The notes under the pieces are model-generated. The model worked only from the letters and a program-made list of their open reading frames with translations. It had not been told where the DNA came from and ran no database searches. The position numbers and the translations under genes were made by a program. This document shows, one piece after another, positions 10,188-15,789 of a DNA stretch of 16,717 bases. Every line of letters begins with the position of its first letter. The first letter of the stretch is position 1. Location of the stretch: contig CP063811.1 of NCBI GenBank assembly GCA_022818785.1, positions 254,212 to 270,928 on the forward strand, given 5' to 3'. Origin of the DNA: Bacteroides sp. (GTDB lineage: Bacteria > Bacteroidota > Bacteroidia > G022818785).

Positions 10188-11438
10188 TCAATATTGATTT
10201 TTATCTTTTACATTGAGTGGCAATTGTTCTATTGAATTTAAATTTCTAATTATCGCATTTGTACGAGTAGTTATTAATTTTTCTAATTCTTCATTGGCTT
10301 CTATAATCTTTTTTTGAGTTTTTGTTAAAACAGAATCAAACTTTTCGAATTCATATTTAATAGCTTTTAAAAGATTCCATACTTCACTGCTTCTTTTTTG
10401 CAATCTTAAAGTTCTGAATCCAACTTGTAAACTATTAAGAATAGCTGCCAAAGTAGTAGGACCTGCAACAATTATTTTATAATTTCGTTGCAAATATTCT
10501 ATTATTCCAGGTTGATTAATAACTTCTAAAAATAAATTTTCAAAAGGTAAAAACATAATTGCAAAATCAGTAGTATAAGGAGGGTCTATATATTTATCAC
10601 ATATATCTTTTGCAAACTTTTTAATAGAATAATTTAACATTTTTTTTGTTTTGTTAATACCTTCAATATTTCCTATATCATATGATTTTTGTAATTTCGT
10701 ATATATTTCTTGAGGAAATTTTGCATCAATAGGCATATATAGTATGTCATCGTTATCATTATTGGGTAATTTAATTGCAAATTCAACGAAAAAATTACTG
10801 TCTTTTTTAGTACGTACATTAGAATCGTATTGATCTAAGGTCATAATTTGACTTAAAATATTTTTTAATTGCATTTCTCCTAGTATTCCTTTAGTTTTAA
10901 TATTGGATAATATTTTTTTTAAATCACCAACACCAGAAGCTAATGAATGTATTTGGCCTAACTCTTTTTGAATAGAATATATATTTTCATTAAATACTTT
11001 TAATGAATTAGAAAGTGTATTGTTTAATGTTTTTTCAAATTTTTTGTCAATTGATAATTCTAATTTGTCTATTCCAATTTGTATAGATTTGAAAAAATCT
11101 AATTGATAATTAGATATATTAGCAAATTTATCATTTTGTAAAATTTTAAAATCGTATAAATATTTTGATAGATTTTGATTAGTATCATTAATTAATTTAT
11201 TATTACTATCATATAATTTGTGTAAATTATTATTAAGAGTTAATTGTAAATTATTAATACTAATATTTAATTCTTCTCTATTGCTTTTTAAAAATTTTAA
11301 AATCTCTAATCTATCATTTAGAGCTTCTTTTTTTAATATAATATTAATATTATGAATGTTATTAAAATTAACATAAATAGATATAAATAATAGGATTATT
11401 ATAATTGAAAATAGACCAAACAAATAAAATAATATCAT
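10188..11438 (-). CDS. rmuC: DNA recombination protein RmuC family
   Basis: N-terminal TM helix, coiled-coil, LASGVGDLKKILSNIKTKGILGEMQL, PIDAKFPQE, KYIDPPYTTDFAIMFLPFE, AGPTTLAAILNSLQVGFRTL. Confidence 0.93.
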   Translation of the reverse strand: MILFYLFGLFSIIIILLFISIYVNFNNIHNINIILKKEALNDRLEILKFLKSNREELNISINNLQLTLNNNLHKLYDSNNKLINDTNQNLSKYLYDFKILQNDKFANISNYQLDFFKSIQIGIDKLELSIDKKFEKTLNNTLSNSLKVFNENIYSIQKELGQIHSLASGVGDLKKILSNIKTKGILGEMQLKNILSQIMTLDQYDSNVRTKKDSNFFVEFAIKLPNNDNDDILYMPIDAKFPQEIYTKLQKSYDIGNIEGINKTKKMLNYSIKKFAKDICDKYIDPPYTTDFAIMFLPFENLFLEVINQPGIIEYLQRNYKIIVAGPTTLAAILNSLQVGFRTLRLQKRSSEVWNLLKAIKYEFEKFDSVLTKTQKKIIEANEELEKLITTRTNAIIRNLNSIEQLPLNVKDKNQY

Positions 11439-11462: not shown

Positions 11463-11762
11463 TACCTGGAGCGGGAGTTGAACCCGCACAATCATTCCTG
11501 ATTACAGGATTTTCATACTACTACAATTTTCATTGCATTTTATAAAAATAAAATTTTGTAGTCTGGACTATCTCTTCAATTTATATTATATAAATTGCTT
11601 CCCGTATAGTCTCTACACCTTTTTCAAAATATTAATTTTAAAAATTGGCTCGGGATTGCCATATTTACAAAAATTTAGGTTCCCCCGAATTTGAGAAGTT
11701 CTACCTTTTATTGGCACTCAAATTATTAAGTCCTGCGTGTCTACCAATTCCACCATCCAGGC
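11463..11762 (-). tRNA. tRNA-Leu(UAA) interrupted by an intron: exon 1 11762-11728 (35 nt), exon 2 11513-11463 (51 nt); CCA not encoded
   Basis: Joined exons GCCTGGATGGTGGAATTGGTAGACACGCAGGACTT|AAAATCCTGTAATCAGGAATGATTGTGCGGGTTCAACTCCCGCTCCAGGTA give an 86-nt class II tRNA. Acceptor GCCTGGA/TCCAGGT, anticodon arm CAGGA-CTTAAAA-TCCTG, long variable arm, discriminator A. Confidence 0.95.
11514..11727 (-). ncRNA. Group I self-splicing intron (IC3-like), 214 nt, no ORF
   Basis: P AAUUCGGGGGAA (11691-11680), Q AAUCCCGAGC (11657-11648), R GUGUAGAGACUAUA (11618-11605), S AAGAGAUAGUCC (11576-11565). P1 ACUU|AA pairs with UUGAGU, placing U.G at the 5' splice site. P3 CUUCUC/GGGAAG, P4 UUCGGG/CCCGAG, P7 GACUA/UAGUC, terminal G at 11514. 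Confidence 0.95.
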
Positions 11763-11771
11763 AATACTAAA

Positions 11772-11844
11772 AGCGAAAGACGAGTTTCGAACTCGCTACC
11801 TTCACCTTGGCAAGGTGACGCTCTACCAATTGAGCTACTTTCGC
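11772..11844 (-). tRNA. tRNA-Gly(GCC), CCA not encoded
   Basis: GCGAAAGTAGCTCAATTGGTAGAGCGTCACCTTGCCAAGGTGAAGGTAGCGAGTTCGAAACTCGTCTTTCGCT; anticodon GCC, discriminator U; 9 nt upstream of tRNA-Leu. Confidence 0.97.
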
Positions 11845-15321: not shown

Positions 15322-15789
15322 TTATGTTTTATTTTGTACTAATTTAACATTAAATTCAGATTCCGATGCAATTGAATTATTTATATATATTATTCCATAT
15401 ATGGTATATATATTTCTTTTAAGATTATTATTTATTTTACAATAAATCAACAAATTGTCATTTGGTTTTATTATCAATCTAAATTTAGCATAATTAATAG
15501 AAATTAAATAAATAAAGAAATTTTCAGGTTTTTTTCTATTATGTAATAATAGAAAATTAGCTGCTTGTGCCATCGATTCTATTTGCATTACACCTGGCAT
15601 AATAGACATCCCAGGAAAATGACCCAAAAAATCTAAATCTTTTTTATTAATTTCCTTTGTAGCCCATATATTATCTTTATCAATTTGTATAATTTTATCT
15701 AAAAAAAGAAAAGGAGACCTATGCTTCAAAACATATTTAATATCATTAATATGATAACAACAATATTCTCTTTTATATGGAAAGATCAA
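15322..15789 (-). CDS. fabZ: 3-hydroxyacyl-ACP dehydratase FabZ (non-AUG start; exact start uncertain)
   Basis: LKHRSPFLFLDKI, FLGHFPGMSIMPGVMQIESMAQ, AKFR..I.P.D.L hotdog-fold motifs. Confidence 0.92.
   Translation of the reverse strand: MIFPYKREYCCYHINDIKYVLKHRSPFLFLDKIIQIDKDNIWATKEINKKDLDFLGHFPGMSIMPGVMQIESMAQAANFLLLHNRKKPENFFIYLISINYAKFRLIIKPNDNLLIYCKINNNLKRNIYTIYGIIYINNSIASESEFNVKLVQNKT

Follow-up and report, generated by a model that had tools for sequence, protein, structure and literature searches.

A tRNA-Leu(UAA) gene that is interrupted within its anticodon raises the question of whether the interruption is a working ribozyme, whether the cell could do without it, and how it came to lie in a genome of only 489,825 bp (21.8% GC, single contig). 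The gene is found on the minus strand of the window, i.e. the whole stretch of 16,717 nucleotides analysed here. A preliminary description of this DNA had placed two tRNA halves there, separated by 214 nt, and its coordinates proved exact. The sections below consider the gene and the need for its product, the structure of the intron, its relatives in other genomes, and the readings that could account for it.

A split gene for the tRNA that reads UUA

Exon 1 (11762..11728, minus strand, 35 nt) comprises the 5' strand of the acceptor stem, the D arm, the 5' strand of the anticodon stem and C32, U33 and U34, and ends in GGACUU. It is followed by a group I intron of 214 nt (11727..11514, minus strand; 27.6% GC), which starts with AAUAAU, ends in UAUG and holds no ORF; the call draws on the Rfam model RF00028, ARAGORN with intron search (-i), covariation and the MFE fold. 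Exon 2 (11513..11463, minus strand, 51 nt) starts with AAAAUCC and runs from A35 and A36 through a long variable arm and the T arm to the 3' strand of the acceptor stem, with discriminator A73 and no encoded CCA. The insertion site lies between U34 and A35 (CUU/...g/AAAA), directly after U34 as had been proposed. Joining the exons in silico yields a canonical class II tRNA-Leu(UAA) of 86 nt with the loop CUU/AAAA, a G1.U72 pair and the same A73. Upstream of exon 1, across a spacer of 9 nt, lies tRNA-Gly(GCC) (11844..11772, minus strand; found by ARAGORN and by the Rfam tRNA model at 68.7 bits), and the two genes are probably co-transcribed. The downstream neighbour is rmuC (10188..11438, minus strand; Pfam RmuC, E 1.1e-64).

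The covariance-model check bore out the group I identity first proposed from the letters: the intron reaches 79.4 bits (E 4e-19) with RF00028, whose gathering score is 50, and this is the model's single match across the whole 489,825-bp genome. The ends of the match (11779..11545) are mis-set, the P1 of the model being placed on the 3' end of tRNA-Gly. By default, ARAGORN reports 31 tRNAs and a tmRNA in the whole genome and misses the split tRNA-Leu(UAA), an omission by standard annotation that had been foreseen. With its intron search, it gives tRNA-Leu(taa) i(37,214), in which each end lies one base too far outward; the exon ends of the preliminary description are preferred since with them U8 falls into place and the gene begins with GCC..., as in nine relatives. 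The same search also called a tRNA-Arg(cct) i(40,570) at genome positions 230811-231477, which was rejected because an ORF of 415 aa encloses it and Rfam shows no match there at E up to 1. ARAGORN -i by itself is not trustworthy in this genome, and the intron in tRNA-Leu(UAA) was accepted because two independent models concur.

The leucine tRNAs found by ARAGORN in the genome carry the anticodons CAA, GAG, UAG and, in the split gene, UAA; there are no others. UUA accounts for 8,830 of 12,363 leucine codons (71.4%) in 389 ORFs of at least 150 aa, which make up 86% of the genome, in line with the dominance of TTA that had been remarked on. With 62.9 occurrences per 1,000 codons (6.3% of the codons counted), it is the fifth commonest codon. 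Under standard wobble rules, the leucine tRNAs with anticodons CAA, GAG and UAG are unable to read UUA. Since the split tRNA is the sole reader of UUA, splicing has to work in every cell, and the intron-bearing tRNA-Leu(UAA) is probably essential.

This conclusion depends on the gene being single, as had been supposed. Searches with ARAGORN (default, -i and relaxed), Rfam and a regular expression gave no credible second, uninterrupted tRNA-Leu(UAA) gene in the genome as searched, which contains 40 masked blocks (2,392 N in total), and a tRNA cut by one of these would escape detection. Relaxing ARAGORN (-ps85) increased its calls from 32 at default to 72. Three extra 'Leu(taa)' calls at this setting were rejected; they have no Rfam tRNA match and are located in DNA of 17-21% GC that is mostly ORF. 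The regular expression for uninterrupted UAA anticodon arms found five hairpins in the genome, none of which is called a tRNA at the default threshold.

Intron structure and its conservation in a sister genome

The structure was modelled on an alignment of 11 Bacteroidota pre-tRNAs, the ORF-bearing introns L005 and L057 and those of genomes G202 and G297 being left out. The model comprises P1 to P9, including the P3/P7 pseudoknot, together with the tRNA cloverleaf, for a total of 93 pairs. Standard pairs occupy 95.8% of the cells, and 49 of the 93 pairs have changed on both sides. None of 500 shuffles attains the values of the model, and slid controls pair at 33-50%. Because the 11 sequences used for the count are also those from which the model was derived, the paired percentage is inflated and the compensatory changes are less so; those in P2, P3, P6, P8 and P9 are harder to dismiss. 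Against this model the window pre-tRNA has 74 positions paired and three failures, which represent a register shift in P8. The MFE fold of the intron alone (-43.1 kcal/mol, z -2.56, with 3 of 200 shuffles equally stable) recovers P2, P4-P5, P6, P7, P8, P9, P9a and P9b.

The 5' splice site lies within P1 (11716..11731; alignment columns 34-38/50-54), in which exon ACUU and intron AA face UUGAGU, with GAGU (11719..11716) as the guide sequence. The U.G wobble at the splice site, with its U at 11728, is found in 11 of 11 sequences (columns 36/52), and P1 is 98.2% paired. P2 (11703..11715), as read from the alignment and the MFE fold, has only three pairs and a loop of 7 nt. The conserved core of P3, P4, P6, P7 and P8, with its P3/P7 pseudoknot, is present. 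The 5' strand of P3, CUUCUC (11693..11698), is partnered by 11603..11598 in six pairs that are 100% paired, five of them changed on both sides. In the P4-P5-P4' domain (11650..11688), P4 (UCGGGG/UCCCGA) is invariant in 11 of 11 sequences and P5 carries a receptor-like motif, CCUAAA...UAUGG. P6/P6a (11618..11648) has a distal part of 5% GC; its two closing P6 pairs are invariant, and the distal P6 helix is 100% paired with five of six pairs changed on both sides. The catalytic core includes the R element at 11598..11613, formed by the 5' strand of P7 (GAGACUA) and the 3' strand of P3 (GGGAAG), and the S element, the 3' strand of P7 (UAGUCC), at 11565..11570; the six pairs of P7 are 100% paired, with one compensatory change. 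P8 (11577..11597) appears in the alignment and the MFE fold as an uninterrupted A-U helix of 5% GC.

The 3' part of the intron (11514..11562) contains P9 (ACUAC/GUAGU), P9a, whose pairs are all A-U, and P9b, which is capped by a GAAA loop; position 11514 is the terminal G. One column pair of this part (313/379) covaries, being C-G in six, U-A in four and unpaired in one of the 11 sequences. A final G is also found in 45 of 45 cleanly mapped introns at the same site. The U.G pair, the terminal G and the spliced loop named in the preliminary description are all present, in the sequence as well as in the 11-sequence alignment. Three U located 5' of the guide sequence may pair with the first As of exon 2 as a P10. 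As had also been noted, the window intron contains no endonuclease ORF, its longest sense-strand frame being 34 aa.

The order to which the window genome (G000) belongs has only one other genome (G001), each being of approximately 0.5 Mb, and in G001 the intron likewise lies downstream of tRNA-Gly(GCC). No 16S match was found in the G001 assembly, and RuvB was used as the measure of divergence instead; at 67% RuvB identity the two are, by this measure, old relatives with a deep split. Between them, exon 1 is identical at 34 of 35 positions and exon 2 at 48 of 51. Within the intron, identity is 20 of 23 in the P3-P4 block, 23 of 25 in J6/7-P7-P3', 22 of 22 in J8/7-P7'-P9.0 and 22 of 23 from P9b to the 3' end. 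P2, P5, P6a, P8 and P9a have many substitutions and indels. The core blocks of the G000 intron have 30-53% GC, and distal P6a, P8 and P9a have 0-5%, in a genome of 21.8%. A core that is kept under strong AT pressure, next to a decaying periphery, is the pattern that would be expected of a working ribozyme.

The periphery of the two small genomes also differs from that of their free-living relatives in two motifs. Among the nine free-living relatives in the alignment, P2 bears a GAAA loop (L2) in all and P8 contains a CCUAAA/..GG internal motif in seven; G000 and G001 lack both. The L9 GAAA loop (on P9b) and the receptor-like motif of P5 are retained in G000. These GAAA loops and CCUAAA motifs may be the tetraloop-receptor pairs of IC3 introns (L2 with P8, L9 with P5), in which case the L2-P8 clamp, one of two at the periphery, has been lost. 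As the L2 loop and the P8 motif are gone and the outer helices are almost pure A-U, unassisted folding may be weak.

Host, distribution and descent

The host had been called a reduced Bacteroidota symbiont. Assignment to the Bacteroidota is supported by the nearest Atlas clusters of RuvB, which are mostly Bacteroidota, and by the position of the intron in a clade with eight named Bacteroidota introns; the 16S of the window genome is 76-79% identical to that of sampled members of the class. The reduction also stands, at 490 kb and 21.8% GC. The word symbiont goes further than these data; the lifestyle is read from size and composition, and a 0.49-Mb genome of this GC content fits an obligate symbiont or parasite.

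Several other features of the genome were recorded. An ORF for FabZ (155 aa, 15322-15789, minus strand) has bifunctional LpxC/FabZ as its best NCBIfam match, at profile positions 319-463 of 464, and its LpxC half seems to be missing; the bifunctional LpxC/FabZ is typical of Bacteroidota. Two tRNA-Ile(GAU)/tRNA-Ala(UGC) pairs, at positions 525-703 of the window and 58817-58995 of the genome, imply two rRNA operons, which is unusual for a 0.49-Mb genome. The ORFs of pdxJ (6611-7339, plus strand) and fabI (7270-8118, plus strand) overlap by 70 bases, and the true start of fabI is probably further downstream.

The preliminary description implied that such an intron is a rarity, which is not borne out, as free-living relatives also carry it. 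Of 151 evenly sampled genomes of the same class, 10 gave a match to RF00028, and a split tRNA-Leu(UAA) was found in G000, G001, G005 (4.5 Mb), G019 (6.1 Mb) and G134 (3.5 Mb). Two further genomes, G297 (5.4 Mb; 71.4 bits with RF00028) and G202 (3.7 Mb; 46.2 bits with RF00028, just below the cut-off), came from a pattern search across 401 genomes of the class. The split gene is present in at least 7 of the 401 class genomes, and in at least 5 of 399 outside the order of the window; 7/401 is a lower bound, since the model scan covered 151 genomes and an intron with an insert in P1 escapes the pattern. The pattern (GGACTT-gap-TTGAGTGC) was too loose over the 401 genomes, matching in 47 of them, and a reversed control pattern matched many too. 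ARAGORN -i, run on 34 pattern loci, gave a split tRNA-Leu only in G000, G001, G005, G202 and G297. The other 20 pattern-matched places were judged by their printed strings alone, and one of them (G134) had already been confirmed. In genus g22 the pattern occurs in 1 of 12 genomes. Apart from G000 and G001, the 401-genome class sample consists of genomes of 1.3 Mb or more. Other group I introns of the same class (L127/G086, L129/G058, L003/G007, L132/G053, L006/G007) are located in tRNA-Gln(CUG) according to ARAGORN, in tRNA-fMet and, in one case, apparently within 23S rRNA.

An exact 23-base core pattern was further searched in 185,579 species genomes and gave at least 120 loci. Among the matches listed, at least 41 lie in tRNA-Leu(UAA) by ARAGORN -i, one of them (L036) with mis-set ends; they comprise 22 from Pseudomonadota, 8 from Acidobacteriota, 8 from Bacteroidota and one each from Planctomycetota, Binatota and Bdellovibrionota. 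The Bacteroidota among the matches listed are Saprospiraceae, Arcicella, Arsenicibacter, Emticicia and unclassified bins. Again among the matches listed, the same core pattern also occurs in tRNA-fMet and tRNA-Arg(CCU), with less certain ARAGORN calls for Ser, Thr, Phe and His; the hosts of the pattern in other tRNAs include Patescibacteria, Nitrospirota and Acidobacteriota. The same-site intron of G019 carries an HNH ORF (L005 1050-1529, 159 aa; Pfam HNH 28.7 bits against a cut-off of 21.4), and that of Arcicella an ORF of 178 aa (L057 422-958) whose HNH match is weaker and below the cut-off. Both ORFs are placed between the 5' splice site and the guide sequence. Mobile forms thus exist within the Bacteroidota intron clade, which fits its patchy distribution.

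A maximum-likelihood tree was built from 45 same-site introns, i.e. the exact 23-base pattern matches and the hits from the class sample; it is without the cyanobacterial/plastid intron, its bootstrap is not settled and nine rows have deviant composition. In this tree the 13 Bacteroidota rows (8 named Bacteroidota and 5 from the same class, including G000 and G001) are gathered in one clade (100/98). The sister of G000 is G001 (100/99), and both are nested with L060, G005 and G134 (100/99). In a survey of the locus such as had been suggested at the outset, tRNA-Gly(GCC) lies upstream of the split tRNA-Leu at 12 of 15 Bacteroidota loci, and the window gene therefore sits at an ordinary chromosomal locus. 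The best explanation accordingly includes inheritance of the intron within Bacteroidota, which would have preceded the divergence of the two genomes of approximately 0.5 Mb.

The closest known counterparts fall into a few groups. The introns of free-living Bacteroidota (Saprospiraceae, Arcicella, Arsenicibacter and Emticicia; G005, G019, G134, G202 and G297) belong to the same clade and share the P1-P9 model and the tRNA-Gly(GCC)-tRNA-Leu locus. Their length is 221-325 nt in the ORF-less forms and 723-739 nt in those that carry an HNH ORF, whereas the window copy has 214 nt. They are also GC-richer and carry the L2 GAAA loop and the P8 receptor-like motif, both of which the window copy has lost in its 0.49-Mb genome. 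The cyanobacterial and plastid trnL(UAA) intron (IC3, Leu.3Ug) interrupts the same tRNA at the same insertion point (CUU/a...g/AAAA), with the U.G pair and the terminal G, and is small and ORF-less like the window intron. The plastid copy, too, has become fixed in a reduced genome, where it interrupts the only trnL(UAA). The cyanobacterial and plastid intron belongs to another host phylum, and it is likened here by these features. One difference is in the P7 region, where the window intron has GGUGUAGAGACU and cyanobacteria have C; it is because of this difference that the pattern scan did not pick up the cyanobacterial introns. The IC3 intron of Azoarcus pre-tRNA-Ile(CAU), which PMC4033280 cites, is a compact anticodon-loop intron of approximately 200 nt, with a core motif (AAGGUGUAGAGACUA) similar to that of the window intron and with both tetraloop-receptor contacts kept. 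It differs from the window intron in the tRNA and in the position within the loop.

Persistence of group I introns in very small bacterial genomes has a precedent in the IOLA bacterium (303 kb), for which the passage on introns in PMC8155191 describes group I introns in the 23S rRNA, two of three with endonucleases. These provide an example of such persistence in the 0.3-0.5 Mb range, but they differ from the window intron in their rRNA location, in the endonucleases of two out of three and in their Rickettsiales-related lineage. In its passage on bacterial tRNA group I introns, PMC4033280 lists them only for cyanobacteria and for alpha- and beta-proteobacteria, and a 2014 review (PMC3984707) does not mention Bacteroidetes. 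A survey of 80,413 genomes by Williams (2020), in which 5,292 tRNA group I introns were mapped, named the type Leu.3Ug and gave counts by phylum (bioRxiv 10.1101/2020.01.27.920355). According to the preliminary description, such introns are otherwise known sporadically in Proteobacteria; the one at this site is found in named Bacteroidota and in five further phyla, and the survey by Williams (2020) covered tRNA introns across phyla. A full-text literature search found no report of a tRNA group I intron in Bacteroidota or its reduced symbionts, although the phylum counts of Williams (2020) may well include it. The claim that none had been described in a reduced Bacteroidota symbiont thus holds as far as that search reaches, while the intron type itself was already known, and same-class genomes of 3.5-6.1 Mb carry it, as do named Saprospiraceae, Arcicella, Arsenicibacter and Emticicia.

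Splicing, fixation and alternative readings

Taken together, the most probable reading, to which we assign a probability of about 0.85, is that a functional, ORF-less Leu.3Ug/IC3 group I intron splits the single tRNA-Leu(UAA) gene, was inherited and is now fixed. The structure is present in the sequence and the alignment, and the chemistry would be that of the family. The pre-tRNA would probably be transcribed together with tRNA-Gly(GCC), and the intron would fold as P1 to P9. Free guanosine would then attack 3' of the U in the U.G wobble of P1, and the freed exon 1 would in turn attack after the terminal G. This exon would be aligned by the anticodon stem and a short P10, in which the UUU 5' of the guide pairs with the first As of exon 2. 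The result would be the 86-nt tRNA-Leu(UAA), the only tRNA reading UUA. With neither an endonuclease nor an intron-less copy for recombination, the intron is expected to be fixed, which would be the same situation as that of the plastid trnL intron.

A reading that overlaps with this one accepts the intron as real and removed, and holds that it self-splices poorly alone and needs a protein or host cofactor, such as an RNA chaperone or an aminoacyl-tRNA synthetase-like protein. Many organellar group I introns depend on protein cofactors. The absence in G000 and G001 of both the L2 GAAA loop (9 of 9 free-living relatives) and the P8 motif (7 of 9), the 0-5% GC of P6a, P8 and P9a, and a fold with a z of only -2.56, equalled by 3 of 200 shuffles, point in this direction. 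The core is nevertheless intact, the L9 GAAA loop and the P5 receptor-like motif remain, and small IC3 introns are robust self-splicers, so that dependence on a cofactor is considered unlikely. A pseudogene reading would take the loss of peripheral tertiary contacts as decay of the split gene and would have UUA read via an imported tRNA, a gene within the 2,392 masked bases or an unconventional decoder. All tRNA and core helices are intact, however, and between G000 and G001 the exons and core are far better conserved than the periphery or the housekeeping protein RuvB. The leucine tRNAs CAA, GAG and UAG, moreover, could not take over UUA under standard wobble rules. This reading is very improbable.

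A different question is whether the reduced lineage itself gained the intron horizontally, e.g. by homing from a co-resident bacterium or phage, instead of receiving it from a free-living Bacteroidota ancestor. The sporadic occurrence of the intron (at least 5 of 399 class genomes outside the order, and 1 of 12 in genus g22 by pattern) and the HNH ORFs in the same intron of G019 (28.7 bits) and Arcicella (below the cut-off) are what such gains might leave behind. Against this, both genomes of the order share the locus and are sisters in the tree, which means that any gain predates their deep split (RuvB 67%). The intron also nests inside the Bacteroidota clade, and the window intron has no endonuclease remnant. 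Horizontal gain by this lineage is therefore judged improbable, although less so than a pseudogene, and inheritance of a functional intron remains the preferred reading.

The window intron is a real, well-preserved group I intron of a known type in an unusual, plastid-like setting. General knowledge of group I introns is unchanged by it, and introns of this type are spread widely over public genomes from several phyla. For annotation, default tRNA finders would show this genome without tRNA-Leu(UAA), and this could be misread as tRNA import or a change of the code. As a small and eroded IC3 variant, the intron could be useful for folding studies. Of most interest are the putative loss of a peripheral contact and the likeness to plastids, a ribozyme having become fixed, and apparently indispensable, in a bacterial genome of 0.49 Mb. 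A bolder proposal, which we put forward tentatively, is that this is, beyond plastids, a second independent reduced genome locked into a same-site trnL(UAA) ribozyme, which would have shed one tetraloop-receptor clamp under AT pressure, would retain a nearly all-A-U periphery and may need a protein or host factor. If true, this lineage would provide a natural experiment on how far a working group I intron can erode.
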